A stretch of 43,439 bases of DNA. Source: an uncultured Clostridia bacterium. Its GTDB lineage: Bacteria; Bacillota; Clostridia; TANB77; CAG-508. The position numbers were made by a program, and so were the translations under genes. The first letter of the stretch is position 1; each line of letters starts with the position of its first letter. This document shows positions 9,427-43,112 of this stretch, piece by piece. The stretch is taken from positions 1-43,439 of the forward strand of contig CALXZZ010000002.1 of assembly GCA_944393365.1 (NCBI GenBank). The letters are read 5' to 3'. Below the pieces are notes generated by a model. It had not been told where the DNA came from, ran no database searches, and was given only the letters and a program-made list of their open reading frames with translations.

Positions 9427-9460
9427 AAAAAAACTACTGAAAATTATTTCAATAGTTTTT
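9427..9460 (-). terminator. Rho-independent terminator downstream of the cassette-3 ORF
   Basis: On the - strand AAAACTATTGAAA pairs with TTTCAGTAGTTTT (one mismatch, 4-nt loop) and is followed by a T-run. Confidence 0.6.
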
Positions 9461-9469
9461 ATTTACATC

Positions 9470-9516
9470 AAGGTCTGTCCCTTTTGTTTCATTTTGAAAC
9501 GTTTTGGCACGTCCCC
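9470..9516 (-). repeat. 'GGGAC' repeat element, copy in - orientation
   Basis: The reverse complement reads GGGGACGTGCCAAAACGTTTCAAAATGAAACAAAAGGGACAGACCTT. It starts 2 nt after the stop codon of the 9519-18047 ORF, in the same orientation as that gene. Confidence 0.7.
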
Positions 9517-9518
9517 AT

Positions 9519-12500
9519 TTAATTCTTTCCTAAAACGAATTTCTTAATTAAGATTATTCCTGATACTAATATTCCAAGTGAACTTATTGCTAATGTAATA
9601 TATGCTATATAATTTGTATTTAATCCTGTTGGTGGTAATATTACTAAACTTTCTGATGTCGCATCATCTGGCTCTGATGTACTTGAATCTGTTGGTACAT
9701 AATTTCCTGGTGTTGTTATTAATACAGATCCTCCGTTTTTAATTATCCTTATAATTTCTGCATTGTTTTCTAAGAATGTTTCATCTGCATTAGATAATAA
9801 TCTATATCCTTTTAATGCTACTTCTATAGTTGATCTGCTGTCTGAAGTTATTGTTTCTAAACCAACTGGTACTAATGCTTCACCTTCAAAGTCATCTGTT
9901 GTAATAACTCTACTAGTATCTGATAATACATCTTCTAAATCTTCTGATAATAATCCAGTGTTTATCAATTGTTCTTTTCTATTATCTTGATTTATTGTAT
10001 CCCAAGCTGCGTTTTCACTCATATCTGTTGATAAATTATTATCCAAATAATCTATAATCAATGCTGGTTGTAATGTTACTATACTATTTGCTTCTTCACC
10101 ATGACCAGTTCCATACATATAGAAATCTTGTGTTAAATATTCTAATTCACTAGTATTTGTTACTTCTAAGTTGTATTCTAATTCTATTCTTGCACTTTGT
10201 ACAACTTCTTGATCAACCTCTATTCTTACCATTCCATTTGCTCCTGGAGAAACCGGTGTTACAGATACATGTTGTGCTTGATCTACTAATTGTCCGTTTT
10301 CTAATTTTGCATTAACTAACAAGTTTCCGTCTGCTAATGTAATTCTTGCTGAAGTTATATGCTTATCTAATTCTAATATTTGTCTTGCTCTTTCAATTAT
10401 ACCAAAATCAACACTACTAATTGTATTTTCTAATTGATTAGTATAATCTGTAATATTATTATTATTGTCATCTGTATCAGTATATTCAATATATACTCTA
10501 AAGCTTTGTGTATTAGAATTCATTTGTGCATTATCATATTTATCTCCTGTTTCACTATCTCTATATGTATTTTCAAATTTTTGTTTTTCTCCATAAGTCA
10601 TTTCTTCTGTTTCTGAATCTATTTCAACTCTTGTTGCATAATCATCTACAGCATCTGAAGTTCTTATTTCTGTATTTGTTGTAGTATTCCATTCTAAGTC
10701 TTCATATGCTTGTTTAAAGGTATCATTATACCATTGATCTGATGTTCCTTTTGCATTCCATACATCTTCATTTACTACTGTACTCTTATAATTTTGTACA
10801 TTAACAACTTGTTCTTCTCCATCGTCTAAGGTATATGTTGAGTTAAGACCTGCGCCGTCTATATTTCCTCCCCATGTATACTGAACTTCATATTCTCCTG
10901 GTATAAATCCTTCAATTGTATATTCTCCGTTTTCATCTGTATATGTTATAGCATCTTCAAATTCTTCTGTATCTTTGTTATACACTTGAACTACATTTCC
11001 ATCTGTATCTACTAATGATACTCTTACATTTTCAATTCCTAGCTCATCTTCGTCATATTGTCCATTTCCTTGTCTTGCTATTCCTGTATGTACTTGCTGT
11101 CCGTCCTCTACAGCATTTTCGTCAGTATCTAAGAATACTTTTCCATTTACTCGTCTTTCTAACAAATCTGGATTTTCGTCTGGATCTGGATCTGGGTCTG
11201 GATCTGGGTCTGGATCTGGATCTGGGTCTGGATCCGGACTAGGATCTGGAATAAGTTCATTTGTTAATACTAATAATATACCTGGTGCTTTATCAGTATC
11301 GTCTTCCCATGTTGTCCTATCATTAATATCTGTATTTCCTGGTTGAGAATCTTTGTCTATTCCTGCATATACTTCATTTGTTCCTTCACTATTTGTTTTG
11401 GTTATACCATATTTCTTAATTTCTGATATATTATCCAATTTAGAATTTTCACTATCAGTATTTTCTATAATTTCAATAATGTCATCTTTATGAACTTGGA
11501 ATTGTATATATATATATCTTTCTTCTAACGGTTTTAATTCCAATATTGGCATATTATCTCCACCTATTGTCATTCCTTCATATTCACTACTTATTTCTTC
11601 TATTAATGAAGTATTAAGTCTAGTTTCTTCCTTTATGCTTCCATCCACATTAATATCTGTTCCTACTGCTATCAAATTATATTTTGAATCAAAATAATCA
11701 TCTAATTCATATATTTTTGCTCCTAGATTAGTTGAATTATTTCTAACAGCTATTTTATATGTCAATTCTACAGCTAATGGATCACCATTATCTCCATTAT
11801 AATATACATCTGATGCATATAATGGCCTTGTATATGACATTTCAGAATATTTTTCTTCAAATTTCACTTTTGGATCTAATTCATGTCCACTTACACCATT
11901 ACTATTATCTGCCCATAATTCTTGATTAAATCTATCTCCGTATTTATATACGTGTTGCGTTCCTACTATACTTACTTTAGCACTTTCTATATCTTTTACT
12001 ACAGATAAATCTGGTCTTTCTCTTTTCTTTAATCCCAAATTTATTCCTTCATCAAATGTAGAACCTATTTCTGTTATTCCATTTCTTCTTATATAGTCTG
12101 CAGTCATTATATCTGATAAATATCCTGTTTGACCAACTGATGTATATGCATTATATGTACTAGACGAAATTAAGTATTTATCATCAACTCCATTGACTGG
12201 ATAATATGTTTTATATTCATCTAATGTAACTCCTACATATGGTGCAACTTCTTCTATTGTATCATCATTATATCCAAATAGATATTCTCCTTCATAATCG
12301 ATTGAACTTGTGTAATTTCCAGTATTATATTGGATATCATTTATTTTTGTTCCACTACTATCATTTGATTGTCCTGTTGTAATTTGAGCAAAACCTTCAT
12401 TAAATATTGCTCTATTTTCACCTTCAATAGCATCTGTTCCTCTTTTATTATTTATATCTATAATACTAACTGATTCATAAGCCATACCATTATAAGAAAA

Positions 12501-15500
12501 TTCTATATAATACTTATCTAAGTTGTCTATTAATACATCTACCATTGTATACTTTCCATTAGAATCAGTGTAAGTCTCATCGACTAGCTCTCCATCATCT
12601 TCTTCTCTAAACTGTACTATATTACCTTCATTATCTCTCAGTCTAACAGTAATATTTTCAAGTAATTTGTCATTAACATCATCGCCTATAGACTGATATA
12701 AGTCATTTGTTTCATCTGTTTTTCCTATTTCCCAAGGTATATCTTCCCACGCATATCCTGAAATTTTTATATATTTTCTTTGGTTTTTAACATTCAATGT
12801 GGTTTTTTTGCCATTATTAATAGTCAAACTACTATTTACAACTTTAGGTAAGTCTTCATAACCATAATACGGATTTACAGTTTCTGTTAATTTATATGTT
12901 CCTGCTTCTAATAATTTTATTTCAATCTTTCCATTTTTATTTGTAGTTAGAGTTGTGGCTTTAGTAGTATAAGAAGCATTTCCGTTTTTATCAATTGATA
13001 CATAATAGTTTTCATGAGTGCCTGATGAAGTTTTTTGTAATGTAAATCCTATACCTTGTAATGCTTTATTACTATCTTCATCTGTTTTAGTTATTTCAAG
13101 TCTCCCCTTAATGTCTACAGCTCCAAAAGTAGCAGTCTTTGAAGCATTCGCATATGTATAAACTGTACTACTAGTATAGCTAGCTGTTATCATTCCTTGT
13201 GTTGAACTGGCTGAAATATCAACAGGTCTGCCACTTGAATTTTGATGTTCACCTGATCCAATAGAAGTACATCTATAATATAATTTATATTTTGTTGTTT
13301 TTGGTGTTCTTACAGCATTTTTAGTAGTAACTGTTATTTTCAAGCTATTAATTTTTTCTACATTAGTATTCACTTTTATATAAAATGTTTTATTACTATT
13401 TTGACTCATACTCAAACTAATTGGGTTACCACTACTATTAACAAGAAGACTTGTACTAGTTGACGTTTTTGTTTTGCCACTTTCAGTATAATTTAAAGTC
13501 ATCCCAGTAATTGATGATTCAGTACAATTACTTTTTAATTTATAGGGTCCAACTAGATTATAATTATTATTTAATGCTATTGTATCAACTGAATTAGCAT
13601 CTGCTGTTAAAGTTAATGTTTTTAACGTTTCATTAGAACCGTTCGTTGTAGATTGATTTCTTTTTGATCCTGAACCTCTATAATAATGATCATTTACTGC
13701 ACATAGATGCCATCCAGGATTTGCACAGTTATAACTAACTCCATTACTTCCAGTATATACACCACCTGAAGTCCATCTAATACTAAATCCATATACATTT
13801 GAAGATATAACAACTCCTAACATTCCTGTCATTATAAATACACTAAGCATATTTTTTATTTTTTTATTTTTAAAAGGTTTTATTTTTATTTTACCTTTAA
13901 TAACTAATATTACTACACTCAATAAACCTACTGCTAAAATTGCAAATATAGTATAAGTTATAATACCAGTTTCTATTGAAATCAATAGTTCTGCTTGCGA
14001 ATAATCATCTTCTGATGAATCATTATTTCCTGGGGTAGAATCAATATCAGCTAAATTATTTGCATTTTGACTTATTCCTATTTCTGAAATATTTATAACA
14101 CTTCCTGTTGAATCTTCATCCAAATCTCTTCTTAATGTTAGAGTTAATTCTCTTGATTCACCTGGCTCTATGAATTCTCCTGCAAGACTAGTATTTATTA
14201 AATCTCCACTTTCATTTTTTGACCACGTCATATTATCAGTAGCACTAAATGTGAATCCTTCTGGAATATAGTCTATTATTTGACTTGCAAATCCTTCTGT
14301 ATCACCTTCATTTGTTACAACAATAGTATACTTAACAGTAATACTACTATTTGCAATTTCTCTTGACTTTATATCAACTTTTGTAAATTGTGTATTTTGA
14401 TAATCATAAGTTTTAGTACCACTTGGTGTATTTACTACAACTTGACTTATGTATTTATCTAGCTTAAAGTCAAATCTACTATTACTTACTAATCCCATAT
14501 CAATATTTGATAAACCATTATCGGCAATAGTTAATGTATCAGTTATTCCTACATTTTTTACTACTCCATCTATTGATACTTCTCTAGAAATAGTATCTGA
14601 ATTCAATGTAGCTGAAACATTACTTTTTTGATAAGACGTTAAAGAATATTTACCCGTATCATATTCGAACAATACCCAATAATTACCATTTACAATGTTA
14701 TTAAATTCATATGCACCTTGTTCATTTGTAGTTGTTCTTAAAGTTTCACCATTCTCATTTTGTGCTATAGTTTGAGTATTTGCATCATAAACTTTTACTT
14801 CTATACCACTCATTAATTGTTCTGAATTGTCTCTTTTTCCATCTCTATTTGAATCTATCCAAGCAACACCTGAAATAGAATTAGGTTCTGCAGTTGTTCC
14901 CCCATTATTGTTATCTCCATCTCCACCTTGATCACCATCGCCGGTATTAGGATCTTCTTCATCTTCATATGCTGCTAACAATGTAAAACTAACAATATTA
15001 GAAGTAACTGTTTTTATTCCTTCATTTGCCTCTTCTTCAGTTCTTTCAGCAGTTGCATAATTAGACACTTCTACTGTTTCAATAGAATCTATTGCAGTAG
15101 CTTTAATTGTCATTGTAACAGTTTTTCCAGCAGGTATTTCTAAATATTCATCTACATTTGCCTCTCCTTCAATTATTAATGAAAGATCTCTTTCAACTTT
15201 TTCCATTTCATATTTAAGATTTGCTTCAGCTTCAATATCATACATAGTATCCCCAAACTCATCATCTAGGATAACATATTTTTCATATTCAAGAGAAATA
15301 GGTTCAAGATATTCTGGTAAATAATCATATACATGAGCAGTTGCCCTAATTTTTGATTCATTTGTTATTTTCAATGTGTATGTAACTTCTTCTCCTACTG
15401 TAACTTCTTCTCCTTCTTTATCAGAAGACATTTTTATTGTTACATAAGTTGGATATGCAGATCTTCTATTTTCATTTGAATAATAAATATCGTTTTCATC

Positions 15501-18047
15501 ACTATATGCTTTTACTGATAATCTTAATGGAACTTCATTTACATTATCATCAAAATTATATGCTTCTACATCAATTACTATTGTTATCGTTTGCCCTGGA
15601 GCAATAGAAGGTATAATTCCCTCTAAATATCCATTTGCATAATTTCCAAACTTTTGAAGCATTAAATCACTATTAAAAGTATAATAATAAGAATCAAGAA
15701 CATTTAGTTCTTTTTGAAATTCAGTAGATTCTACATATACATTATTTACCGTTTCATTTGTCAAATTGGTAATTTCCAAGAAATATGAAAAAGCATTTTT
15801 TTGGTCTCTTCCTATATATGATTTCAAGTATACATCTAAATCTGATTTTATTAATTTATTTTCTAGTGTAACTCTGTCATATTCTTCATTATCAATACTT
15901 GCAGAAATTGTATTACTTATATCTTTTTCATTAACACCATCTTCTAGGTCTTTAACTACTACTTCATAAAAACCTGTTTTAGTCTGTCCTGGCTCTAATG
16001 TCTCTGCAACAAATGAATATTCTTTCAAATCTGGATTTTCAATATAATCATATGCCTCTTCAAGATATGTACCAATATCTACTGTTGCATAAACTGTATT
16101 TTCTGGTATTTGACAATTTATATTAACATTATTCATTGTTTTATCTGTTGTATTTGTAACATTTACAACATATTTAATAATTTCACTAGTATGAATACTA
16201 TCTCCATTTTCTAGTATTTTATCTCCTACTTGTGCATATACATCTAATTTGATTCCTTCTCTTCTAATTTCTTCATTAGATGTATTTATATTTGAATTCT
16301 CTGAGTCTGGAGTTTCTGTTATTGAATTATTTACATCCTGATCTACTTCTGTTTCCACTAATTGTTCGTTTGTATCTGTTTCAATATTATTAACATTATT
16401 TACTGTATTAACAATATTTAATAAAATATCTTCGCATATTCCTTGTTCTGTTATATAATTATTTCCAGAGATAACCTCATTTGTAAAACTTGCTTTAATA
16501 GCAGTTTCTGTTGTAGTAATGTCATTTCTTACTATTATATTAGCAGGAATTACAATATTAGTTCCATTGTTAATTGTATCATTATTATATGAAGTTTGTT
16601 CTCCTTCTAATTGTATAACAATTTCCTTACTTCCATCACTATTATCTATCACATTGCTATCTGCAACATTAAGACCATTTCCATATAATACAGAAACATC
16701 ACCTAATACTACTTTTTCCACTTCTGATGGTAATGTAATTCTTAAAACAGGGTTTCTAAATAAATTGTATTCATTATCATTTGATTTTAAAGTTGCCGTT
16801 AATACAACATTATTAGTCACACCATTGCCTAAATTATTATTATCAATTTGAAGATCAATATCAGATTTTGCACTTTCTATCTCTGTAATTTTTTGTGAAT
16901 CTTCAACTAACCCATTTGCTAATGATATATTTTCACTAGTAACTATTCTTTTTGCATTCAAATCAGTTACTGTACTTTTTATAACCTTATTATTTTGTAA
17001 TCTAATAATTCCTTCCTTAATTGGTGTAGAAAATTCTAATTTAATATTTTCTGTATTTTCTCCATATAATATTTCTATAATACCTTCTTGAGATTCTTCT
17101 GTATCTTTATTTATCTCTTGCAAAACACTTCCGTCTTGTGCCAATAACTTTATAGTTCCATTTTCTCCCAAAATATTAATCATATCTTGTTTACTTATTT
17201 GAGTACTTGTATAAATAATATTATCAACATCATTCAAATCTTGTCCGTTCTCATTTTGCCAAGTATTACTTTGTTCTATTACTATTTTTTCTCCTATATC
17301 TTTGTAACTAACTAATATATTCATAGATTCTTTATATGTAGTTTCATAAGTAGTACCATAAGCTTTATTGGATTTAATATAACCATCATATACTGTTTCA
17401 GTTCTAATATCTGAAGAAATTATACTACCAATATTTTCAGTAAGATTTTGTGTATATGATAATGTTTGTGTAACACTTCCTATTTCTTCATTATATAAAT
17501 CTTCACTAACTACTGCTTTTATTTCAATATTTCGTTCAGCATTTTGATCTGTATACACATTTTCTCCATATATACAGATAACTTCATATTCATCTCTTGC
17601 TGTGCTATTATATTGATTATATGGCTCTTCTCCTTCATTACTAGCAGTTAATTGTAAAATTCCTTTTTCATTATCATATGAATAATTACCTTCTATATTG
17701 CTAGTCTGTCCATTAGTAGCTTTTGTACTTTGAGCAATTACTTCTATTCTTTCTGGTAATTCTCCATTTATTTTAGGAACTTCTACTAATGTTGTTGTCT
17801 TTTTAATCGCACCATAATTCTGACCCTCTTCATATTCAATTCCTGTTTTTACATTAAATTGCAAAAGAGTGCCTTTTCTTTCTTCGATATTAAAATTATT
17901 ATATTTACTAATTGATATTTCTATTAAAGCTTTTGCTTTTTCTTCTAAGCTATTTACTATTTCTTCTGCAAAAACCATTGAATGTGCAAATAGCAAAGTA
18001 AATATCAACATAAATACAATGACAGTTTTTAAAACTCTTCCCTTCAT
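9519..18047 (-). CDS. Giant fused surface protein (cassette 3: A3 and B3 modules in one 2,842-codon ORF)
   Basis: GGAGG RBS and signal peptide (MKGRVLKTVIVFMLIFTLLFAHSMVFA). The N-terminal 1,399 aa are collinear with the A proteins at 28942-33876 and 38115-42926. The C-terminal 1,443 aa are collinear with the B proteins at 24534-28937 and 34120-38097. It ends with LPPTG, a TM helix and a basic tail. Confidence 0.8.
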   Translation of the reverse strand: MKGRVLKTVIVFMLIFTLLFAHSMVFAEEIVNSLEEKAKALIEISISKYNNFNIEERKGTLLQFNVKTGIEYEEGQNYGAIKKTTTLVEVPKINGELPERIEVIAQSTKATNGQTSNIEGNYSYDNEKGILQLTASNEGEEPYNQYNSTARDEYEVICIYGENVYTDQNAERNIEIKAVVSEDLYNEEIGSVTQTLSYTQNLTENIGSIISSDIRTETVYDGYIKSNKAYGTTYETTYKESMNILVSYKDIGEKIVIEQSNTWQNENGQDLNDVDNIIYTSTQISKQDMINILGENGTIKLLAQDGSVLQEINKDTEESQEGIIEILYGENTENIKLEFSTPIKEGIIRLQNNKVIKSTVTDLNAKRIVTSENISLANGLVEDSQKITEIESAKSDIDLQIDNNNLGNGVTNNVVLTATLKSNDNEYNLFRNPVLRITLPSEVEKVVLGDVSVLYGNGLNVADSNVIDNSDGSKEIVIQLEGEQTSYNNDTINNGTNIVIPANIIVRNDITTTETAIKASFTNEVISGNNYITEQGICEDILLNIVNTVNNVNNIETDTNEQLVETEVDQDVNNSITETPDSENSNINTSNEEIRREGIKLDVYAQVGDKILENGDSIHTSEIIKYVVNVTNTTDKTMNNVNINCQIPENTVYATVDIGTYLEEAYDYIENPDLKEYSFVAETLEPGQTKTGFYEVVVKDLEDGVNEKDISNTISASIDNEEYDRVTLENKLIKSDLDVYLKSYIGRDQKNAFSYFLEITNLTNETVNNVYVESTEFQKELNVLDSYYYTFNSDLMLQKFGNYANGYLEGIIPSIAPGQTITIVIDVEAYNFDDNVNEVPLRLSVKAYSDENDIYYSNENRRSAYPTYVTIKMSSDKEGEEVTVGEEVTYTLKITNESKIRATAHVYDYLPEYLEPISLEYEKYVILDDEFGDTMYDIEAEANLKYEMEKVERDLSLIIEGEANVDEYLEIPAGKTVTMTIKATAIDSIETVEVSNYATAERTEEEANEGIKTVTSNIVSFTLLAAYEDEEDPNTGDGDQGGDGDNNNGGTTAEPNSISGVAWIDSNRDGKRDNSEQLMSGIEVKVYDANTQTIAQNENGETLRTTTNEQGAYEFNNIVNGNYWVLFEYDTGKYSLTSYQKSNVSATLNSDTISREVSIDGVVKNVGITDTLTIADNGLSNIDMGLVSNSRFDFKLDKYISQVVVNTPSGTKTYDYQNTQFTKVDIKSREIANSSITVKYTIVVTNEGDTEGFASQIIDYIPEGFTFSATDNMTWSKNESGDLINTSLAGEFIEPGESRELTLTLRRDLDEDSTGSVINISEIGISQNANNLADIDSTPGNNDSSEDDYSQAELLISIETGIITYTIFAILAVGLLSVVILVIKGKIKIKPFKNKKIKNMLSVFIMTGMLGVVISSNVYGFSIRWTSGGVYTGSNGVSYNCANPGWHLCAVNDHYYRGSGSKRNQSTTNGSNETLKTLTLTADANSVDTIALNNNYNLVGPYKLKSNCTESSITGMTLNYTESGKTKTSTSTSLLVNSSGNPISLSMSQNSNKTFYIKVNTNVEKINSLKITVTTKNAVRTPKTTKYKLYYRCTSIGSGEHQNSSGRPVDISASSTQGMITASYTSSTVYTYANASKTATFGAVDIKGRLEITKTDEDSNKALQGIGFTLQKTSSGTHENYYVSIDKNGNASYTTKATTLTTNKNGKIEIKLLEAGTYKLTETVNPYYGYEDLPKVVNSSLTINNGKKTTLNVKNQRKYIKISGYAWEDIPWEIGKTDETNDLYQSIGDDVNDKLLENITVRLRDNEGNIVQFREEDDGELVDETYTDSNGKYTMVDVLIDNLDKYYIEFSYNGMAYESVSIIDINNKRGTDAIEGENRAIFNEGFAQITTGQSNDSSGTKINDIQYNTGNYTSSIDYEGEYLFGYNDDTIEEVAPYVGVTLDEYKTYYPVNGVDDKYLISSSTYNAYTSVGQTGYLSDIMTADYIRRNGITEIGSTFDEGINLGLKKRERPDLSVVKDIESAKVSIVGTQHVYKYGDRFNQELWADNSNGVSGHELDPKVKFEEKYSEMSYTRPLYASDVYYNGDNGDPLAVELTYKIAVRNNSTNLGAKIYELDDYFDSKYNLIAVGTDINVDGSIKEETRLNTSLIEEISSEYEGMTIGGDNMPILELKPLEERYIYIQFQVHKDDIIEIIENTDSENSKLDNISEIKKYGITKTNSEGTNEVYAGIDKDSQPGNTDINDRTTWEDDTDKAPGILLVLTNELIPDPSPDPDPDPDPDPDPDPDPDPDENPDLLERRVNGKVFLDTDENAVEDGQQVHTGIARQGNGQYDEDELGIENVRVSLVDTDGNVVQVYNKDTEEFEDAITYTDENGEYTIEGFIPGEYEVQYTWGGNIDGAGLNSTYTLDDGEEQVVNVQNYKSTVVNEDVWNAKGTSDQWYNDTFKQAYEDLEWNTTTNTEIRTSDAVDDYATRVEIDSETEEMTYGEKQKFENTYRDSETGDKYDNAQMNSNTQSFRVYIEYTDTDDNNNNITDYTNQLENTISSVDFGIIERARQILELDKHITSARITLADGNLLVNAKLENGQLVDQAQHVSVTPVSPGANGMVRIEVDQEVVQSARIELEYNLEVTNTSELEYLTQDFYMYGTGHGEEANSIVTLQPALIIDYLDNNLSTDMSENAAWDTINQDNRKEQLINTGLLSEDLEDVLSDTSRVITTDDFEGEALVPVGLETITSDSRSTIEVALKGYRLLSNADETFLENNAEIIRIIKNGGSVLITTPGNYVPTDSSTSEPDDATSESLVILPPTGLNTNYIAYITLAISSLGILVSGIILIKKFVLGKN
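9624..9638 (-). other. LPPTG sortase-type sorting motif (B3)
   Basis: VILPPTGLNTNYIAYITLAISSLGILVSGIILIKKFVLGKN: motif, hydrophobic helix and basic tail. Confidence 0.75.
11178..11249 (-). repeat. Hexanucleotide tandem repeat encoding a PDPS(PD)10 linker
   Basis: Repeats of CCAGAT/CCAGAC on the - strand (GGATCTGG/GGGTCTGG on the + strand). They translate to PDPSPDPDPDPDPDPDPDPDPDPD within the B3 module. Confidence 0.9.
13851..18047 (-). other. A3 module of the fused ORF
   Basis: DUF11-like repeats (e.g. VTYTLKITNESKIRATAHVYDYLPEYLEP). SdrD-B-like domain ISGVAWIDSNRDGKRDNSEQLMSGIEVKVYD...GAYEFNNIVNGNYWVLFEYD. The C-terminus is ADIDSTPGNNDSSEDDYSQAELLISIETG, a TM helix and a Lys-rich stretch. 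Confidence 0.75.
13965..13979 (-). other. SIETG motif preceding the A3 TM helix
   Basis: AELLISIETGIITYTIFAILAVGLLSVVILVIKGK. It is positionally equivalent to SIRTG in A1 and A2. Confidence 0.6.
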
Positions 18048-18088
18048 AATTTTCCTCCAATAGCTTAAATATAAATTTCCTTAAATAT

Positions 18089-18117
18089 ATAGTAACTTTT
18101 ATTAAAATTTAAATCAA
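18089..18117 (-). promoter_or_regulatory. Candidate promoter for the cassette-3 ORF
   Basis: On the - strand TTGATT (18117-18112), a 17-nt spacer and TACTAT (18094-18089). All are conserved in the A2 copy. It lies ~40 nt upstream of the start codon. Confidence 0.4.
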
Positions 18118-18140
18118 TATCAGTTTTTTCCAAGCATAAT

Positions 18141-18169
18141 AAAAAAACCTTCCGCCTACTACGGAAGGT
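18141..18169 (-). terminator. Intrinsic terminator hairpin inside the conserved module (A3 copy)
   Basis: On the - strand ACCTTCCG, a 7-nt loop and CGGAAGGT are followed by TTTTTTT. No co-directional gene lies immediately upstream of this copy. Confidence 0.6.
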
Positions 18170-18282
18170 CATTTCGCCATTTTTCGTCTTGTTTTTTTAA
18201 GTTTACTTTACATTTGTGTAACATTTGTAATATTTTTTATTTTTATTTCTACCCAAAATTATTAATACATAGGGAGAGTTGA

Positions 18283-19374
18283 TTTATAGATTTAATATTT
18301 AAACTAAATGGTTTACTTTTTAGCACAAATGATACATTATATGCAATCTGGAAAGATACAACACCTCCAACCATAGGATTAATACTTAAAGAACAATCAT
18401 CTAGTGAAGATACTATTAATTTAGTTGGTAAAGCTAGAGATATTGGTTCAGGTATAAGTTATTATCAATTTAGTACTCAAAAAGACCTTACAGCTAATTC
18501 TAGTGGATGGATAGAAATAGAAAATACTACTGAGGAAGTTAGTTTATCTTATCCAATATCTGACGGAAATATATATTACTTTTATGTTAAAGACGCATTT
18601 GAAAACATAAATATGAAACCAATTGTAATTACAAAAACTGTTTCACTATATTCTGGACCTACAAAAACAGAATATAAAAATACAGAAGCAGTTGATTATA
18701 CTGGTTTAAAACTAAAACTTGATTATGGCGATGGTATTTATAAAATTATTGATGGTGAACCATATGTTACTTCATGTATAGAAAACGATGATGCAACAAA
18801 TGGTATTAGATATGAAATTACAGTTAAATATGAAAACGATATATTTGAAATTGATACATATAAACTTTCATGGTATTTTAATGAAAATTCTTCTACAGAT
18901 ATGGTAGACTGGTATTATTATGAAAATAATGGACAAAAAGTAACAGGTGAAAGAGAATTAGAAAGTTCTATGGGGTCACAAATTAAAAGATGGTATTTAT
19001 TTGATAATAATGGTTTAATGCAAAGAGGTTGGAAAACAATTAATAGCAAATATAAATATTATTTAATAATCGATTCAACGGTTGGTAACAGAGATGAATT
19101 ATTGTCTAAAGGATTTAATGATGGATCATTAGCTACTAATACATGGGTTCAAATATATAATACAGGAGATCAACGTTATTATTGGTATCATTTTGATGCA
19201 GATGGATATATGCAAACAGGTTGGTTATATCTAAATGGTTATTATTATTATTTAAAACCTTTGAATTTTAGTGAGTGGAGTGGCCCAGAAGGAAGTATGA
19301 TAGTTAATAAAACTGTTACTATTGACGGAAAAAAATATACCTTTGATGAAGGAGGAGTATGTTTAAATCCTTAA
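18283..19374 (+). pseudogene. 5'-truncated surface protein gene: end of a Listeria-Bacteroides repeat, an Ig-like module and cell-wall-binding (choline-binding-type) repeats
   Basis: The reading frame is open from 18283, but the first ATG is at 18613 and no RBS or start codon occurs near 18283. The upstream in-frame part reads ...NDTLYAIWKDTTPPTIGL...DIGSGISYYQFS...GNIYYFYVKDAFEN, paralleling NDTLYANWKDTTLPTVTM...DIGSGLKTLQYAWS...GTYYLWTNVIDNDGN in the 19462-24246 protein. CW-binding repeats (WYYYENNGQKVTG, RWYLFDNNGLMQRGW, YYWYHFDADGYMQTGW) span 18910-19371. A shorter product from ATG 18613 cannot be excluded. Confidence 0.5.
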
Positions 19375-24246: not shown

Positions 24247-24285
24247 TTGTAATTCCTCCACACAATTATGTTTATTACTAATATA

Positions 24286-24314
24286 ATTATATTAAGGAAA
24301 AAAATTTTTTTCAA
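24286..24314 (-). promoter_or_regulatory. Sigma-A-type promoter for the 19462-24246 gene
   Basis: On the - strand TTGAAA (24314-24309), a 17-nt spacer and TATAAT (24291-24286), ~40 nt upstream of ATG 24246. Confidence 0.65.
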
Positions 24315-24474
24315 TAGCAATTTTTACCGTTAATTATTTTGTCTTATATACTGTTACGGATAGTATTGATACCCTTTTTTATTAGTTTTTTTACATTTTT
24401 TTTACACTTCTATTACAATTTTTAAAAATTACCAATAATAATTCATTTTAAGGCAAATTTTCTAATAATATAAC

Positions 24475-24513
24475 AAAAAAACAGTTATATTAGTTTTAAA
24501 CTAATGTAACTGT
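24475..24513 (-). terminator. Rho-independent terminator after B2
   Basis: On the - strand a 15-bp stem (ACAGTTACATTAGTT / AACTAATATAACTGT, one mismatch) is followed by TTTTTT. It lies 21 nt downstream of the B2 stop codon. Confidence 0.65.
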
Positions 24514-28941: not shown

Positions 28942-31900
28942 TTACCTCCTTTCTTTTTTTAGTAAATCATCTGTTAGTTTATCTTCATCTAATATATCTT
29001 CACTTAATGCATTTTCGCCAAATACATTTCTTCTTATTAAATAAATTCCTGCGCCTAAAATTCCAACTATTATAAATATTAAAGTTGTATAAATAATAGG
29101 GCCACCTGTTCTAATTGATACCAATACTTCCGCTGAACTCATATCATCTTCTCCACTGATTTTATTATTTGGTGTTGAATCAATATCATCAATAGATAGT
29201 GAGTTACTTACTTCAGTTAATTCAGCTTGGTTAATAATATTTCCAGTATTGTTGCTATTTAGATTTTTTATTAATGTTAATGTTACAGTTTTTGTTTCTC
29301 CCGGATTTATTATTTGATTTGAAAGTTCATTACTACTCAAATCACCATCTGCTGTTTGATACCAGTTTTTATTCATTTCAGAACTAAATTCCAAATCTTT
29401 TGGCATATAGTCTGTTAACCTATTTACATATCCTGCTAATTCACCTTCATTTGTAATATCAATTTGATATTCAATTATTATTCTTGCACCATTAATTCTC
29501 TTAGCATCTATTTCTACTTTAGCTAGTTTTTCTTTATTAAATTGATTTACAGTAGTTCCTCTTGAATCTTGAACAATTACTTCATTAACATATTTATCAA
29601 TTCTTAAATCAAATCTATCTGCTCTAATAAATCCAGCATCTATGTTAGTTATATTTGAATCACTTACCTCTATTGTAGCAGTTACAGCTACTGTATGCTC
29701 TGTACCCTGTAAGCTTAAGTTCCTACTAATAACGTCTGAATTTTTATCTTCAGTTATTCCTGATTTTTGATATTCTGTTAAGTAATATTCAGTATTATCA
29801 TATTGGAAAATAACTAAATAATTTCCTGGTTGTATTTCTGTAAATACATAACTACCTGTTTCATCAGTATTTTTAATACATTCATCTTCATTTTGGTTTA
29901 AAGCTATTTCTCCTGTTTCTGCATTTATTAAAAATACTGGAATATTAGAAAGAGTTTCTTCATAATCTTCTCTATAACCATTTTTATTTTCATCTAACCA
30001 AGCTGTTCCACTTATTTCATATGTATTATATTCACCTGGTACTTCTGGTTGATCTTCTCCTTCTCTTTCTACTTGATGAGTAATTTCATTACAAGTAATA
30101 TCTTGCATAAATACTTCAAATTCAACTTCGTTTGTAATTTCTTTTTCAAATGCTTTTTCAGTATCTATTACTGTATTAATAACTATTCTAGCTTCATAAC
30201 CATCTGCTAAATTAAAAGTATGAGTTATCATATTATTTGCTTCATCTATTTCAATTTCTTGTTCTTCTGCTAAATTTCCATCAGTATCATAAATTTCTAA
30301 TTTACTATTAGATATTACAGCAGCAAATGGTACATAATCTGTAATTGTTATTTCTTTATCTTCTGGTCCCTCATTTCTAACTGCTATTTCATATGTTAAC
30401 TCATCACCGTTTTTTACTGTATCTCCTTCTATACTTCCTGTTTGTTCTGCTGTAATCTTACTTATTTCATTATAGAAAGTTCTTGATAATTCATTTGAAA
30501 TATATGTTTCTCCATTCATTTCACCAGTAAAGAAGAAGTTCATTTCTTGTTCTCTAATATTTTCATCAAAAGCTTCAACATATAACGCAAGACGTATACC
30601 TATTTTTTCTCCCGCTGGAATTGTTGGTATTCTAAGTGTTAATACACTATCTTCATAAGATACAAATTCAAAATTATCTTCTTCAAATAGGTAATCTGTT
30701 GAAAATGAAAATCCTTCTGGTACATTTAATGTTAACATTACATCGTTTTGCTCTTCATTAGTCAAATTAGTTACATCCATAAAAAATGGATATTGCCTGT
30801 TTGTTAAAACTCTATATTCTTGAGCATATTTATCTCTCATTTGTAATTTTAATTGTGATTTTTCTATTTCATTAGTAACTGTATTTATCGTTTTTTCTTC
30901 AATTCCATCAGCAGATATTTTAATTTCACCACTTGTTTCTACTTGTTCTCCTTCAATTTGTTTTACTGAAAATTGATAACTTAAAGTTACACTTTCTCCT
31001 GGCTGTAATGAATCTACTGTTAATACTTTTTCTAGTAAATCTTCATTTTCTACTATATCAGTATATTTTATATCAGTTGCACCAGTAGTTGAATCCCAAC
31101 CATCATTTTGTACTAGTTCATCATAAAATATAGCATTTGTTTGGGTTGCATTTATATTTATATTTGTAATTTCTTCTGTTCCTGTATTTTCTAATCTAAT
31201 AATATTTTTTATTCCTTGCCCCTCTTTTACTATATCACCATCAGCTAAATTTTGTCCTCCAGTTCTTGATACTAGACTAACAGACAAATCTTTCACAATA
31301 TCTGTGACTTCTAAATTTTGATTCTCTTCTAATCCTTCTGAATTTGTCTCTACCTGTGCCTCTGTTGTTAATCTAATTTTAGAAACATTTTCTAAATCGT
31401 TTCCTAAATAATTATATCTTACATAAACTTGATTTTCTTCATTTATATTTCCTTGAAGTCCTTCTTTTATTTTTAAATCATATGTAACTTTTAGCACCTC
31501 AGATGAATTTAATTGATTTTCAGCTACATTTATCTTAAATAGTTTTACTTTACTTTCATCTTCTATTGTTTCTTGCCAATTTTGAGTATTTATATCTTCA
31601 TCTTCTGAATAATAAATTTTTGATTCTCTACCTTCAACAGCTATGTTATTAATATCCGTAATATTTGATATAGTTCCTATAATTTCAAAATTACTAATAT
31701 TAGTTGTATAATTATTTATAACAGATATTACTCCATTAGCATTTCTTTCACTTGCATTTATGTCTAATTTTGCCTCTTTTACATTATCATCGAAACTTTC
31801 TATACTTTCTCCACTATTATTATAATTTTCTAATTCATTAATTACTAAAATTCCATCTTTTGAATTTATTTTTATTGGAACAGAAGTATTAAATGTCTCT

Positions 31901-33876
31901 CCGCTTCTATTTTCATTTGTATAATTCATACTTATTTCTGTTTGCATTGTTGGTACTGTTTTATCAATTGTAATATCTGCTATAATTGAAATTTGAATTC
32001 CTTCATTAATATTATTTTCAAAAGATAACTGTTCTCCTTGTAAATGCAATGAAATTGTTTTAGTTCCATCTTCATTATTAATCAATCTTGGTTCTACTAT
32101 AGTTAATTCATTCTGTCTATTTAATTGTGTAATATTTTTAACATTAATATTTATCTCTCTTGGTAATACAATTTCAATACTTGGATTTTTATATAAATCA
32201 TATTGCTCATTATTACTTACTAAAGTAACTAAAAATTGTACATTTTCATTTGTTTGTAATGTAGATAAATTACTATTATTTACTTCTAACTTTGCTTCTG
32301 TCTTTGTATCAACTAAATTTATAGAAGCTTCTCCAATTTCTTCTCCTAATTGTGTTGATACTGAACTTCTAGAAATAAGTCTAGTAAATAATTTTAATTG
32401 ATCTTTAGTATAACTATTTTGTCCCTTTAAAGCCTTTGTATGTTTAAATATCAAAGTTCCTTCTGATATTGGTTTAGAAATAGTCATTTTAATATTTTTA
32501 TGCTCTACATCATAGGCAATATTTATATTTCCATTTTCATCTGTTATAGTATTATTATCAATTATTGTGATATTTACATCATTTTCGTCTTTAATTATGA
32601 TATTTCCAGATTCCCCTAAGATATCTAACATGTTTTGTTTATTTATAGAAATATCTTTATATGTAACACTATCATTTGCAACATATTCTTGATTTTCATC
32701 AGTTACAAATTGATTATCTAATGTTTGTATTTGCATATTTTCTATACTTTGTGCATTTGAAATATTAATACTATCTTCTTCTTCAAAAGCTATTTCATTT
32801 TCTACTCCGGCATATAAATATCCTTTATATATTTCTTGTTTTAATATACTTTTTTCCAAATCTACTATATTACCTTTTTTTGTAACTTGAACATCTTGCA
32901 TATCTTGTTTTTGGACTTCGTCTTTTGTAAATAACTTTGTAGACACTGATGTATTAATTTGTATTGTTTTGTCATTTTCACCAATTTCGCTTGGATATAT
33001 ATATATTATTTGATAAATATTTTGAGCATTTCCCCAATTAGTTGTATTATCTGTAGTTATTAAATCTATATTTTGAACTTGTAGCAAGTTATTTTCTTTA
33101 TCATAATTTATATTTCCTTGCTCTAATTTTTCTCCATTCAATAATACATATATGTCTTCAGGTTGTTGTTCTTCTATAACAGGAACATTTATATTTAATG
33201 TTTCTTGTTCTCTTGGTAATTTATCATCAATAACATTTGTTATAACATTTTGTTGCAACAAGATTCCATTGCTACCTAAATTTATAAACTTTTCTATATT
33301 TTGACTTAAAGTAATATCTGTATCCGCACTCCAATTAATTTTTAAATTTCTTTCTGCTGTTACAGTAGTTTCTGTTTCATCTTTGTAAGTTCCTGAAACT
33401 GTAATCAAATTTTCTTGTTCAAAGTAATTCATATCAAAAGTATTTTGTTTTTTAAATTTAATTGGAATTTCTATCTCTATATTATTTCCAGATGGTATTG
33501 AGTTTAAAGCTATTTCATTTGTTTCTTCATTTATTTCCTTTATATTTGAATTTTGTACTTTATCTTTAACTATTTCAAAATTACCATTTGCCATTTGTAT
33601 TTTTGCATCATTTAATATTCCCTTATTTTTAACACTTATGTATAAAATAAGAGTAGCTTCCACATCAACATTTATTTGTTTTTCATGTATTGTTGAATTA
33701 TCTTGTTTAAAATACACATCAAAATCAACATTTTGGACATTTGTTGATGTATTTTGTTCTTCTAAATTTTCTGATACTGCTAATACCAAATTATATCCAA
33801 TGAACACAAAGTTCACCATTGTTAATAGCACTATCAATAAAGATGCAATTAGTACTTTTAAAATCCTTCTTTTCAT
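28942..33876 (-). CDS. A2: giant DUF11-like and SdrD-B-like repeat surface protein with SIRTG, a TM helix and an acidic tail
   Basis: Signal peptide MKRRILKVLIASLLIVLLTMVNFVFIGYNLVLA. DUF11-like repeats (VTYEIAVRNEGPEDKEITITDYVP; IKNIIRLENTGTEEITNININ). SdrD-B-like domain ISGTAWLDENKNGYRED...GSYVFTEIQPGNYLVIFQYD. The C-terminus reads DDIDSTPNNKISGEDDMSSAEVLVSIRTGGPIIYTTLIFIIVGILGAGIYLIRRNVF, followed by a 25-aa acidic tail. Confidence 0.8.
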   Translation of the reverse strand: MKRRILKVLIASLLIVLLTMVNFVFIGYNLVLAVSENLEEQNTSTNVQNVDFDVYFKQDNSTIHEKQINVDVEATLILYISVKNKGILNDAKIQMANGNFEIVKDKVQNSNIKEINEETNEIALNSIPSGNNIEIEIPIKFKKQNTFDMNYFEQENLITVSGTYKDETETTVTAERNLKINWSADTDITLSQNIEKFINLGSNGILLQQNVITNVIDDKLPREQETLNINVPVIEEQQPEDIYVLLNGEKLEQGNINYDKENNLLQVQNIDLITTDNTTNWGNAQNIYQIIYIYPSEIGENDKTIQINTSVSTKLFTKDEVQKQDMQDVQVTKKGNIVDLEKSILKQEIYKGYLYAGVENEIAFEEEDSINISNAQSIENMQIQTLDNQFVTDENQEYVANDSVTYKDISINKQNMLDILGESGNIIIKDENDVNITIIDNNTITDENGNINIAYDVEHKNIKMTISKPISEGTLIFKHTKALKGQNSYTKDQLKLFTRLISRSSVSTQLGEEIGEASINLVDTKTEAKLEVNNSNLSTLQTNENVQFLVTLVSNNEQYDLYKNPSIEIVLPREININVKNITQLNRQNELTIVEPRLINNEDGTKTISLHLQGEQLSFENNINEGIQISIIADITIDKTVPTMQTEISMNYTNENRSGETFNTSVPIKINSKDGILVINELENYNNSGESIESFDDNVKEAKLDINASERNANGVISVINNYTTNISNFEIIGTISNITDINNIAVEGRESKIYYSEDEDINTQNWQETIEDESKVKLFKINVAENQLNSSEVLKVTYDLKIKEGLQGNINEENQVYVRYNYLGNDLENVSKIRLTTEAQVETNSEGLEENQNLEVTDIVKDLSVSLVSRTGGQNLADGDIVKEGQGIKNIIRLENTGTEEITNININATQTNAIFYDELVQNDGWDSTTGATDIKYTDIVENEDLLEKVLTVDSLQPGESVTLSYQFSVKQIEGEQVETSGEIKISADGIEEKTINTVTNEIEKSQLKLQMRDKYAQEYRVLTNRQYPFFMDVTNLTNEEQNDVMLTLNVPEGFSFSTDYLFEEDNFEFVSYEDSVLTLRIPTIPAGEKIGIRLALYVEAFDENIREQEMNFFFTGEMNGETYISNELSRTFYNEISKITAEQTGSIEGDTVKNGDELTYEIAVRNEGPEDKEITITDYVPFAAVISNSKLEIYDTDGNLAEEQEIEIDEANNMITHTFNLADGYEARIVINTVIDTEKAFEKEITNEVEFEVFMQDITCNEITHQVEREGEDQPEVPGEYNTYEISGTAWLDENKNGYREDYEETLSNIPVFLINAETGEIALNQNEDECIKNTDETGSYVFTEIQPGNYLVIFQYDNTEYYLTEYQKSGITEDKNSDVISRNLSLQGTEHTVAVTATIEVSDSNITNIDAGFIRADRFDLRIDKYVNEVIVQDSRGTTVNQFNKEKLAKVEIDAKRINGARIIIEYQIDITNEGELAGYVNRLTDYMPKDLEFSSEMNKNWYQTADGDLSSNELSNQIINPGETKTVTLTLIKNLNSNNTGNIINQAELTEVSNSLSIDDIDSTPNNKISGEDDMSSAEVLVSIRTGGPIIYTTLIFIIVGILGAGIYLIRRNVFGENALSEDILDEDKLTDDLLKKERR
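29104..29118 (-). other. SIRTG motif preceding the A2 TM helix
   Basis: SSAEVLVSIRTGGPIIYTTLIFIIVGILGAGIYLIRR. Confidence 0.6.
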
Positions 33877-33927
33877 TACTTACAACCCTTTCCCTCAATA
33901 ATTTTAGATATACTTTTCCTTAAATAT

Positions 33928-33956
33928 ATAGTAGCTTTTATTAAAAATTAAATCAA
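33928..33956 (-). promoter_or_regulatory. Candidate promoter for A2-B2
   Basis: On the - strand TTGATT (33956-33951), a 17-nt spacer and TACTAT (33933-33928). The geometry is identical to the A3 copy. Confidence 0.4.
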
Positions 33957-33979
33957 TATCAATTTTTTCCAAACATAAT

Positions 33980-34008
33980 AAAAAAACCTTCCGCCTGCTA
34001 CGGAAGGT
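33980..34008 (-). terminator. Intrinsic terminator after B1 (A2-copy of the module hairpin)
   Basis: On the - strand ACCTTCCG, a 7-nt loop, CGGAAGGT and TTTTTTT, ~110 nt downstream of the B1 stop codon. Confidence 0.7.
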
Positions 34009-34119
34009 CATTTCGCCATTTTTCGTCTTGTTTTTTTAAGTTTAGTTTACATTTGTGTAACATTTGTAATATTTTTTATTTTACTTCTTCTTAATATATT
34101 ACTTAATCTTTAGGGATAG

Positions 34120-38097: not shown

Positions 38098-38114
38098 CGT
38101 TTCTTCCTCCTTTC

Positions 38115-42926: not shown

Positions 42927-42971
42927 AGTGATGTCCTCCTTTTCATTTCTACATTTTCCCACCTATTACAT

Positions 42972-43000
42972 ATTATATCGCATTTTTCCAGTTTTTTCAA
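42972..43000 (-). promoter_or_regulatory. Consensus sigma-A-type promoter for A1-B1
   Basis: On the - strand TTGAAA (43000-42995), a 17-nt spacer and TATAAT (42977-42972). Confidence 0.7.
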
Positions 43001-43072
43001 CACTTTTTCGGTTATTTTTTAAGTTTTTATGTAGATTTCCGAAGGTTGCTAATATATAATTTAAATAAATAG

Positions 43073-43112
43073 AAAAAAATAAGATTAAGTAAAGTCTTAA
43101 TCCTATTTTTTT
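43073..43112 (-). terminator. AT-rich terminator hairpin after the PD-(D/E)XK gene
   Basis: On the - strand ATAGGATTAAG pairs with CTTAATCTTAT (one mismatch, 6-nt loop) and is followed by TTTTTTT. An A-run on the other side makes it potentially bidirectional. Confidence 0.5.

Follow-up and report, generated by a model that had tools for sequence, protein, structure and literature searches.

The window analysed here is the whole 43,439 nucleotide stretch, which carries A- and B-type surface-protein genes on the minus strand. The host is an uncultured, low-GC, spore-forming Firmicute of the chicken gut. The genes that matter for the module described below, and a diverged relative of that module, were placed as follows.

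9519..18047, minus strand: A3 gene, 2842 aa, an A-B fusion whose product has an LPPTG sorting signal besides DUF11, SdrD_B and SpaA domains
18283..19374, plus strand: divergent ORF with choline-binding repeats
24280..24417, minus strand: a stretch ahead of gene C that is related to the module but diverged
28942..33876, minus strand: A2 gene, 1644 aa
34120..38097, minus strand: B1 gene, 1325 aa, whose transcript enters the A2 copy of the module

The first ATG of the plus-strand ORF is at 18613, and the 110 codons that are open upstream of it contain no start codon, so that this ORF is 5'-truncated near the edge of the module flank.

The module itself lies upstream of both A3 and A2 and was divided into a core and, at A3, a 5' flank.

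18076..18243, minus strand: core of the A3 copy, from the box to the transcription start region, with 6 mismatches to the A2 copy
33915..34082, minus strand: core of the A2 copy, bounded by the stop of B1 at 34120 and the start of A2 at 33876, by alignment
18244..18297, minus strand: 5' flank of the A3 copy, the decayed counterpart of 34083-34136, where the stop-codon region and 3'UTR of B1 lie; the stop codon is lost at A3, by alignment

The preliminary description of this DNA had reported, from alignment by hand, that the two intergenic modules are nearly identical beside diverged genes. Program alignment confirmed this, with mismatches at 6 of the 168 positions between 18076-18243 and 33915-34082 and a gap-free identity of 92% over 194 nt when 18050-18243 was compared to 33889-34082. 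All six core differences (A3 coordinates 18095, 18108, 18123, 18134, 18158 and 18206) fell in the hairpin loop or in spacers. The coding flanks of A2 and A3 were as poorly alignable as had been stated: sensitive blastn returned a single 74-nt patch of 73% identity, deep inside the genes, and protein identity was 28-39% among A1, A2 and A3N and 29-33% among B1, B2 and B3. A search of the genome for further copies gave exactly two, both before A genes, as judged from metagenome unitigs in which the module had 2x the depth of its flanks and the alternative flanks were those of the A2 copy and no others. Deletion or amplification junctions between the two copies, which had been suggested as a product of recombination, were not seen among short-read contigs (rare ones could escape), and a B1-module-A3 deletion variant was absent from both the assembled contigs and the joints.

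The core and the DNA immediately downstream contain a predicted promoter and a ribosome binding site, as had also been proposed.

18124..18132, minus strand: TGGAAAAAA tract, conserved and resembling an UP element, 6 nt ahead of the -35 hexamer, with a putative function, from sequence
18112..18117, minus strand: -35 element TTGATT (33951-33956 in the A2 copy), from sequence
18089..18094, minus strand: -10 element TACTAT after a 17-nt spacer (33928-33933 in the A2 copy), from sequence
near 18081-18082, minus strand: predicted transcription start (33920-33921 in the A2 copy), from the -10 element
18054..18058, minus strand: RBS GGAGG, ahead of the A3 start codon at 18045-18047

The hexamers are separated by 17 nt, within the 16-18 nt of SigA-type promoters. 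TTGATT-17-TACTAT agrees with the consensus at 8 of 12 positions, which is under the cut-off of the promoter scan, and the scan reported only an overlapping TTTAAA-18-TATATT. The frame TTGAWW-17-TAnnAT was conserved in the 15 related promoter regions displayed in full. RNA evidence was taken from assembled metatranscriptome contigs, which are strandless and of low depth, whose ends are not mapped 5' or 3' ends and whose libraries lose short RNAs. The A2 mRNA contig (depth 29) ended at 33914, 6-7 nt from the predicted start, A2 contigs of two further runs ended at 33892 and 33896, and none reached farther upstream. The A3 contig ended at 18055. These contig ends fit the predicted promoter. The B1 contig passed through the box and ended at 34027, 18 nt short of the hairpin stem, and no RNA contig was found over 33915-34026.

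A strong intrinsic terminator had been noted in the module and was recovered in both copies.

18141..18169, minus strand: intrinsic terminator of the A3 copy, ACCTTCCG, loop TAGTAGG, CGGAAGGT, then T7, from hairpin scan and folding
33980..34008, minus strand: intrinsic terminator of the A2 copy, predicted to end the A1-B1 transcript, loop TAGCAGG, from hairpin scan and folding

One terminator was found where 0.1-0.2 were expected, with a stem of 8-10 bp, a 7-nt loop and T7 after it, and the 51-nt stretch folded gave -18 kcal/mol. In the A2 copy the hairpin is placed at the expected stop of the B1 transcript and the RNA contig ends fit, in agreement with the proposal that it terminates A1-B1. 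Because RNAalifold, run on MAFFT-aligned hairpins, put the 3' arms of two of them out of register, the hairpins of seven related copies were folded singly. They comprised four stem variants, all between -15 and -21 kcal/mol and each with a T-run. At the sequence level, the stem changes between species were shown to be compensatory. In related modules the terminator was found in three different places, either ahead of the box, around motif 2 or downstream of motif 2. Directly before A3 there is no co-directional gene, as had been observed, the neighbour being the divergent plus-strand ORF. The best explanation is that the A3 hairpin terminates nothing useful and is present because it was copied along and because motif 2 lies inside it.

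Upstream of the promoter the module contains two conserved motifs, one of which overlaps the direct repeat of the preliminary description.

18207..18223, minus strand: WalR-type box of the A3 copy, TGTTAC-ACAAA-TGTAAA, exact for TGTWAH-N5-TGTWAH
34046..34062, minus strand: WalR-type box of the A2 copy, exact for TGTWAH-N5-TGTWAH
18210-18228 and 34049-34067, minus strand: direct repeat ACAAATGT x2, from pattern count
18159..18166, minus strand: motif 2 of the A3 copy, TTCCGTAG, family consensus WTCCSTAR
33998..34005, minus strand: motif 2 of the A2 copy, WTCCSTAR

The direct repeat was present in both copies (2 matches vs 0.23 expected) and at 18210-18228 is overlapped by a box that fits the WalR consensus TGTWAH-N5-TGTWAH (PMC9210968). 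Exact matches to this consensus numbered five within the window against 1.44 expected, and four of the five precede A3, A2 or C, on the same strand as these genes. The exact box was kept in 15 of 16 related promoter regions inspected, the other (L129_A2) having one mismatch, and a more distant region, L161, was without an exact box at the family distance. Motif 2 lies 41 nt past the box, where it makes up part of the hairpin's 5' arm and of its loop. A composite pattern of the box, 39-42 nt and TCCSTA was found three times in the window and not once in 300 random windows. It was present at every related locus fetched and, among ~140 other loci collected by box-sequence scans, only in L132, a relative. 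Scanning metagenomes with the box likewise recovered this one true relative together with unrelated promoters, such as one before a cell-wall hydrolase gene, and a metagenome scan with the promoter pattern gave zero matches.

The suggestion that a shared regulator site constrains the module gained a candidate site in this box, which is exact in both copies and recurs in related modules. A WalR-like regulator would bind it and co-regulate the A, B and C genes, although another OmpR-family regulator of similar specificity is equally possible, and motif 2 probably has a role in the promoter cassette. Regulator genes were found neither in the window nor in five related loci. From the box centre down to the predicted start there are ~135 nt, the terminator included, and the distance from the box end to the -35 element is 113 nt in the A2-type module and ~75-90 nt in the C-type, beyond classical activator positions and constant within the family. 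This is far for a classical OmpR-family activator site, and another mode of action or another target is possible. Other readings of these motifs were tried and set aside. A Bce/GraR operator fitted the box in part and was superseded by the exact WalR-consensus match, and where sigma-54, ECF-sigma, Xer/dif or TcdR-type sequences were considered for the box or motif 2, comparison by eye to their consensus gave a misfit in spacing or orientation.

An RNA element could also be read into this region. It might be a leader, attenuator or riboswitch whose promoter lies in the box or farther upstream, or else a small RNA that has its end at the hairpin. It would explain a strong hairpin and T-run before A3 with nothing there to terminate and the fixed distance of motif 2 from the box, and a 21-codon ORF running from the box to a stop in the hairpin loop was kept in 5 of 7 copies. 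However, Rfam gave no match at the gathering threshold over the whole window and, with E up to 10 on 17950-18650, only far-sub-threshold matches of a terminator-like, noise kind. The fold of 18040-18300 was no better than shuffles (z = -0.9) except for the terminator, and the terminator shifts relative to the box and motif 2 among related modules. The A2 RNA contigs do not extend back as far as the promoter, and none covers the DNA between hairpin and promoter. The small ORF has no Shine-Dalgarno sequence or other RBS and is broken in two relatives, L127 and L124, and was rejected. We therefore regard an RNA element as quite improbable, and the earlier idea of a leader or attenuator (or riboswitch) was not upheld, given no Rfam match and no A2 RNA contig upstream of the promoter.

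The module was not confined to A2 and A3. Its diverged relative before gene C has the following parts.

24475-24513, minus strand: B2 terminator, upstream of the gene C box
24390-24417, minus strand: double WalR-type box of the gene C region
24354-24362, minus strand: TATCCGTAA of the gene C region
~24309-24314 and 24286-24291, minus strand: gene C promoter, TTGAAA-17-TATAAT

The frame of box, 40-41 nt, WTCCSTAR, ~50 nt and promoter occurred before unrelated surface-protein genes, gene C included, and the same module was found before A-type genes in related species (A homologues of 51-77% protein identity) and in other contexts, after rpoC (L124) and after an fn3/Y_Y_Y gene. Six same-species metagenome contigs had 0 differences in the A3 core with a surrounding region 96.6-98.7% identical, and across species the core was more conserved than the adjoining coding DNA. 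The A and B surface genes are hypervariable and mosaic between strains. Judged by its invariance among strains and its conservation across species, the core is under purifying selection, and the functional constraint that had been offered as one cause of the identity is thereby supported.

A discrete block of ~190 nt with sharp edges, an A-B pair and module in new contexts (after rpoC in L124) and a box 19-mer that occurs in a widespread mobile element might together suggest that the module is mobile or repeated, in the manner of a MITE or REP, or else that it is an invertible promoter switch. In genome contigs the 19-mer, ACAAATGTTACACAAATGT, gave 117 matches, nearly all to one mobile two-component/ABC family of Lachnospiraceae and others, with similarity confined to the 19-mer and the window's species not among them, so that these elements have the 19-mer alone in common with the module. 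The two genomic copies both stand before A genes and share no flanking inverted repeats, the plasmid and phage collections gave no match, and four metagenome runs contained no inversion, deletion or strand-changing joints. Mobility or inversion is thus extremely unlikely as the source of the two copies.

Whether purifying selection alone, acting on copies that date from an ancient A-B duplication and in which nearly every base is functional, could have kept the two cores alike was judged by comparison to orthologues. Selection of this kind is compatible with a strain-invariant core better conserved across species than the adjoining coding DNA and with differences restricted to the hairpin loop or spacers. 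However, orthologous cores differ by 12-24% and the paralogous cores by 3.8%. The A3 core of the window is 96.2% identical to the A2 core, 87.9% to L127_A2 and only 75.8% to its orthologue L157_A3, whereas over the 5'UTR plus 90 nt at the start of the gene A3 is 70-71% identical to L157_A3 and 56-58% to A2. Within a bounded tract the A3 copy is therefore closer to its paralogue and groups with A2-type cores, while the flanks follow the gene tree. This comparison draws on a single A3-type orthologous module, that of L157, the A3 orthologue in L156 having no module. Mosaic alleles in the population were found as well. In L159, two neighbouring diagnostic sites of the A2 copy show A3 alleles, and at 18206 the A2 allele occurs in the A3 copies of both X1 and X19, on a unitig that in X1 is common to the two copies. 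These observations make selection alone improbable and point to ectopic gene conversion acting on a constrained promoter cassette, in line with the recent conversion that the preliminary description had named as a possible cause.

The weak similarity of the 5' flank of the A3 copy to the B1 stop-codon region, noted earlier, proved real, with 29 of 37 positions matching in a local alignment and a score reached by 0 of 500 shuffles, and CTCCCTAT at 18269-18276 stands opposite ATCCCTAA at 34110-34117. The sole match of this flank was the window's own B1 3' flank, and the 3' ends of other B genes gave no significant score. Identity in the flank is only 67-78% as compared to 96% in the core, so that a single copying event would need later conversions of the core only or far stronger constraint on it.

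The flank had led to the proposal that the A3 copy is the relic of a larger duplicated unit, one that comprised B end, terminator, promoter and A-B. A recent segmental duplication followed by very fast gene divergence would account for the B1 relic before A3 and could draw on genes that are hypervariable and mosaic between strains. This is contradicted by the A3 gene, whose identity is 28-39% to A2 but 69-72% to the A3 genes of related species, with the L156 gene likewise adjoining spoIIE. The A3 5'UTR, coding sequence and spoIIE neighbourhood are thus orthologous to those of related A3 genes, the only one of which to have a module (L157) has a different version. As the 5'UTR and first 90 nt follow the orthologue, only ~250 nt of upstream DNA would have been copied. 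The short relic of the B1 3' flank stood and the duplication of the whole unit, which we consider very unlikely, did not; taken as a whole, the preliminary interpretation was partly supported.

Together these data suggest that the module is a cis-regulatory cassette of A-B surface-protein operons and that its A3 copy was overwritten from A2 by gene conversion, a reading we hold to be likely. On the minus strand, the cassette would begin with a direct-repeat site fitting the WalR (OmpR-family) consensus exactly, followed 41 nt beyond the box by the conserved WTCCSTAR motif. In the present module type, an intrinsic terminator built around motif 2 would halt transcripts from the upstream operon, and the A-tract and housekeeping-type TTGATT-17-TACTAT promoter would start the A-B mRNA ~35-45 nt before the ATG. 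In this lineage, ectopic gene conversion probably replaced DNA upstream of A3 with an A2-type segment of ~220-250 nt that runs from the final codons of B1 as far as the transcription start, and the strain mosaics suggest that short-tract exchange between the copies is ongoing. The locus so read is a tidy case of a known process and not a new kind of element.

A broader reading, which we put forward only tentatively as a possibility, is that the box-WTCCSTAR-promoter frame marks an undescribed promoter class and regulon for all the giant sortase-anchored surface proteins (A, B, Flg_new/dockerin and fn3) in a gut Clostridia lineage, with a WalR-like regulator at about -135, a motif 2 factor, and cassettes that serve as homology anchors for shuffling and conversion of hypervariable genes. 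The conversion reading explains how very different adhesin genes of one genome keep a common control region and documents gene conversion limited to non-coding regulatory DNA. It also offers a testable candidate regulon, a 17-nt box and an 8-nt motif at fixed spacing before the largest surface proteins of a chicken-gut bacterium. For annotation, the seemingly pointless A3 terminator is then a conversion passenger and not the sign of a hidden gene or RNA.

The module resembles several known systems in part. Like ordinary intercistronic terminator-promoter junctions, it has a Rho-independent terminator followed within ~25 nt by a housekeeping-type promoter, but its terminator is set between two conserved upstream promoter motifs and varies in position among related modules. 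Promoters of the WalR (YycF/VicR) regulon are known in Firmicutes, including B. subtilis yocH and predicted sites in C. difficile, where some are ~100 nt upstream of a sortase-substrate gene (PMC9210968). The module shares with these an exact direct-repeat consensus, a place before genes for exported wall-attached proteins and conservation across orthologues. It differs in that a terminator and ~135 nt in all separate the box from the start, that a second motif follows at a constant 40-41 nt, and that the putative targets are giant adhesin- or pilus-like proteins rather than peptidoglycan hydrolases.

Operators of Bce/Gra-type response regulators have been described as AnnTTACnAnnnnGTnAG (PMC10858260) and ACAAAWKTGT (PMC3128592). 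TTACACAAATGTAA, which makes up the second half of the box, fits TTACnAnnnnGTnA. In over 100 genomes of gut Firmicutes, the exact 19-mer occurs directly before the -35 element of an ABC-transporter gene that has an OmpR-type regulator and a kinase beside it. Unlike these operators, the module box agrees at 10 of 12 consensus positions and has no ABC transporter or two-component system nearby, and diverged module copies keep the WalR-type hexamer repeat and not the Bce-type inverted repeat.

Upstream DNA kept alike by recombination is known from the upstream homology box of the erp/ospEF-related genes of Borrelia burgdorferi and from the babA/babB 5' regions of Helicobacter pylori. The module is like both in its near-identical promoters, diverged surface-protein genes and non-reciprocal exchange between paralogues. 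Unlike them, it has just two copies, and the tract converted here consists of non-coding DNA only and ends where transcription starts.

Program alignment of the two module copies, the near-identical non-coding blocks upstream of the surface-protein genes A3 and A2, resulted in 92% identity over 194 nt without gaps (18050-18243 against 33889-34082). This bore out the near-identity first seen by hand alignment. The core (18076-18243 against 33915-34082) carried six mismatches, at A3 coordinates 18095, 18108, 18123, 18134, 18158 and 18206. Sensitive blastn of the 2.2 kb around each copy detected no other similarity except a single 74-nt stretch at 73% far inside the genes, and the module was absent from the region upstream of A1. 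Protein identity was 28-39% among A1, A2 and A3N and 29-33% among B1, B2 and B3; by this measure the A proteins and the B proteins of the window are distant paralogues. The elements of the module are listed below.

Elements of the module in the A3 and A2 copies
18207-18223 (A3), 34046-34062 (A2), minus strand: box, TGTTAC-ACAAA-TGTAAA
18159-18166 (A3), 33998-34005 (A2), minus strand: motif 2, TTCCGTAG
18147-18169 (A3), 33986-34008 (A2), minus strand: hairpin, ACCTTCCG/CGGAAGGT
18141-18147 (A3), 33980-33986 (A2), minus strand: T7 run
18124-18132 (A3), minus strand: TGGAAAAAA tract
18112-18117 (A3), 33951-33956 (A2), minus strand: -35 element, TTGATT
18089-18094 (A3), 33928-33933 (A2), minus strand: -10 element, TACTAT, after a 17-nt spacer
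18054-18058 (A3, GGAGG), 33886-33896 (A2, GAGGGAAAGGG), minus strand: RBS
18045-18047 (A3), 33874-33876 (A2), minus strand: start codon

Copy number was assessed in four metagenome runs. Module unitig depth was twice that of the flanks, and at 18065 and 18243 the sequence continued alternatively into the A2-copy flanks and nowhere else, indicating two module copies in the genome. No joints were reported in these runs, no inverted repeats flanking the module were common to both copies, and plasmid and phage collections contained no match to it.

The direct repeat of the preliminary description (ACAAATGT, twice) is real but is better described as TGTTAC-N5-TGTAAA, an exact match to the WalR consensus TGTWAH-N5-TGTWAH applied to B. 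subtilis and C. difficile (PMC9210968). Five exact consensus matches were found in the window against 1.44 expected, four of them on the gene strand upstream of A3, A2 and C, a further large surface-protein gene with a double site. We infer from this match that a WalR-like regulator would bind the box. The box is part of a frame (box, 40-41 nt, WTCCSTAR, about 45-60 nt, TTGAWW-17-TAnnAT) that recurs in 16 promoter regions drawn from three unrelated gene families; one of these loci has an A protein just 37% identical. The composite pattern of box, 39-42 nt and TCCSTA occurred three times in the window, in none of 300 random windows and in every related locus fetched; with the exception of the relative L132, about 140 further loci, all of them obtained by scanning for the box, lacked it. 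A terminator scan detected the hairpin at both copies (0.1-0.2 expected). The terminator precedes the box in some loci (C-type, third-gene type, L132, first spacer of L160), encloses motif 2 in others (A2-type) or comes right behind it (second spacer of L160). As its place within the frame shifts, the fixed unit is made up of box, motif 2 and promoter, with the terminator as an accessory.

In L130 (8013-8034) and some 15 human-gut contigs like it, the same exact WalR-type box precedes a cell-wall hydrolase (Hydrolase_2) gene. There it stands 5 nt ahead of a perfect TTGACA-17-TATAAT promoter, and a second, partial box follows shortly after the -10 element. More than 100 genomes of gut Firmicutes contain an exact 19-mer of the box, ACAAATGTTACACAAATGT, directly ahead of the -35 element of a gene for an ABC transporter adjoining an OmpR-type regulator and kinase. 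These genes (regulator, kinase, ABC/FtsX transporter) form a mobile module in L011 (6616-6760), L014 (4948-5134) and about 110 other loci of Lachnospiraceae, Oscillospiraceae, Holdemania and even Collinsella, where the 19-mer is the apparent operator beside a long-range inverted repeat (AAATGTCCGAG...CTCGGACATTT). Beyond the 19-mer these loci had nothing in common with the module, and the lead they offered was a partial one.

Homologues of A2 formed a graded series from 77% to 28% identity, and several carried the module before the A gene with core identities of 79-88%, also where the upstream neighbour was rpoC (L124) or an fn3/Y_Y_Y gene (L127). In L124 (9744-10000) the A-B pair and module lie directly downstream of rpoB-rpoC, so the hairpin there would serve as the rpoC terminator. 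Seven copies contained four stem variants (ACCTTCCG/CGGAAGGT, ATGTCTTTCC/GGAAAGACAT, AACCT(T)CCCT/AGGGAGGTT and a G-U variant), and all seven folded at -15 to -21 kcal/mol with a T-run at the end, so the hairpin is maintained as a structure. Assembled contigs from four chicken-gut metatranscriptome runs, which are strandless with inexact ends, were placed over the module. The best-covered A2 mRNA contig (depth 29) stopped at 33914, 6-7 nt before reaching the start that the -10 element predicts, and A2 contigs of two further runs ended at 33892 and 33896. The B1 mRNA contig ran through the box to 34027, no RNA contig from the four runs was placed in 33915-34026, and the A3 mRNA contig ended at 18055. 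Within the precision of such contigs, the pattern is consistent with A1-B1 transcription stopping at the hairpin and a new transcript starting from the promoter.

Orthologues of A3 were found in two relatives. L156 is syntenic beside spoIIE (81% DNA identity) and has B2, 66 nt and A3 (72% protein identity) with the module absent; L157, a short contig ending before spoIIE, has B2, the module and A3 (69%). The A3 core was 96.2% identical to its A2 paralogue, 87.9% to the A2 copy of L127 and 75.8% to the orthologous copy of L157, the one A3-type module available for this comparison. Over the 5'UTR and first 90 nt of coding sequence the same comparisons gave 56-58%, 57% and 70-71%. This incongruence indicates that the A3 core was replaced by an A2-type core in the window's lineage. 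The preliminary interpretation was largely right, but the recent duplication of a whole A-B unit that it proposed was not borne out, as the A3 5'UTR and coding start follow the orthologue.

Significant similarity of the A3-copy 5' flank (18244-18297) was confined to the B1 stop-codon region of the window itself (29/37 matches, a local alignment score reached in 0/500 shuffles), indicating that the copied segment began within the end of B1. The A3 and A2 5' flanks are much less similar than the cores, reflecting either later conversions confined to the core or free decay of the flank with constraint on the core. Six same-species contigs showed no differences in the A3 core, in surrounding DNA 96.6-98.7% identical, while the 5' flank was variable. 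Exchange between the copies seems to be continuing, judging by mosaic alleles: the A2 copy of strain L159 carries A3 alleles at two neighbouring diagnostic sites, and at 18206 the A2 allele is present in the A3 copies of the metagenome sequences X1 and X19. Several B genes have, between their stop codon and the box, a second motif-2-like sequence, ATCCCTAR (34110-34117 and 18269-18276 in the window; B-gene 3' flanks of L157, L129 and L156). The "relic" similarity before A3 may in part be this conserved motif rather than pure decay.

The window (G+C 27.9%), present in many chicken-gut metagenomes, has a tandem array of giant surface-protein genes on its minus strand (A1-B1, A2-B2, C, A3), adjoining spoIIE, an ACP synthase gene and tatD. 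A3 is here an A-B fusion of 2842 aa with a C-terminal LPPTG sorting signal, a single ORF (9519-18047) with a hydrophobic anchor-like segment mid-protein; in the syntenic L156 (10001-18351) A3 and B3 form two genes (1676 and 1012 aa). A2 has a mosaic allelic structure: the window and strain L126 are 98.9% identical over 31674-43107 and just 66% over its middle and C-terminal part (29021-31231). Gene C encodes Flg_new repeats and a dockerin domain. Its true start is more likely ATG 24246, with GGAGG 7 nt upstream, than GTG 24261 of the ORF list (24244-24261), and the ATG context is kept before Flg_new genes of L126 and L127. A plus-strand ORF (18283-19374) encodes a 253-aa choline-binding-repeat protein from its first ATG at 18613; the 110 codons open upstream have no start codon or RBS, and the ORF appears to have lost its 5' end near where the module's flank ends. 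Unitig depth of 2-4 times at 18320-18362 indicates paralogues elsewhere in the genome. Only this species has gene C and the truncated ORF between B2 and A3, indicating an insertion relative to L156, L157 and L129. A 70-nt direct repeat (2413-2482 and 9453-9522, 73% identical, GGTCTGTCCCTTTTGT...TTTTGGCAyGTCCCC) has one copy between the convergent M48-peptidase and tatD genes and the other right after the A3 stop codon; it had no Rfam match and folded weakly.

Together these data show that the near-identical module is real. It is a promoter-terminator cassette under constraint, with a candidate site for a response regulator, and the sequence comparisons indicate that gene conversion has homogenised its two loci in this species. 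The part worth follow-up is the fixed two-motif upstream frame common to all the large surface-protein genes. Among known operators, those of the Bce/GraR type partially fit the 19-mer, and the cassette itself belongs to already known kinds.
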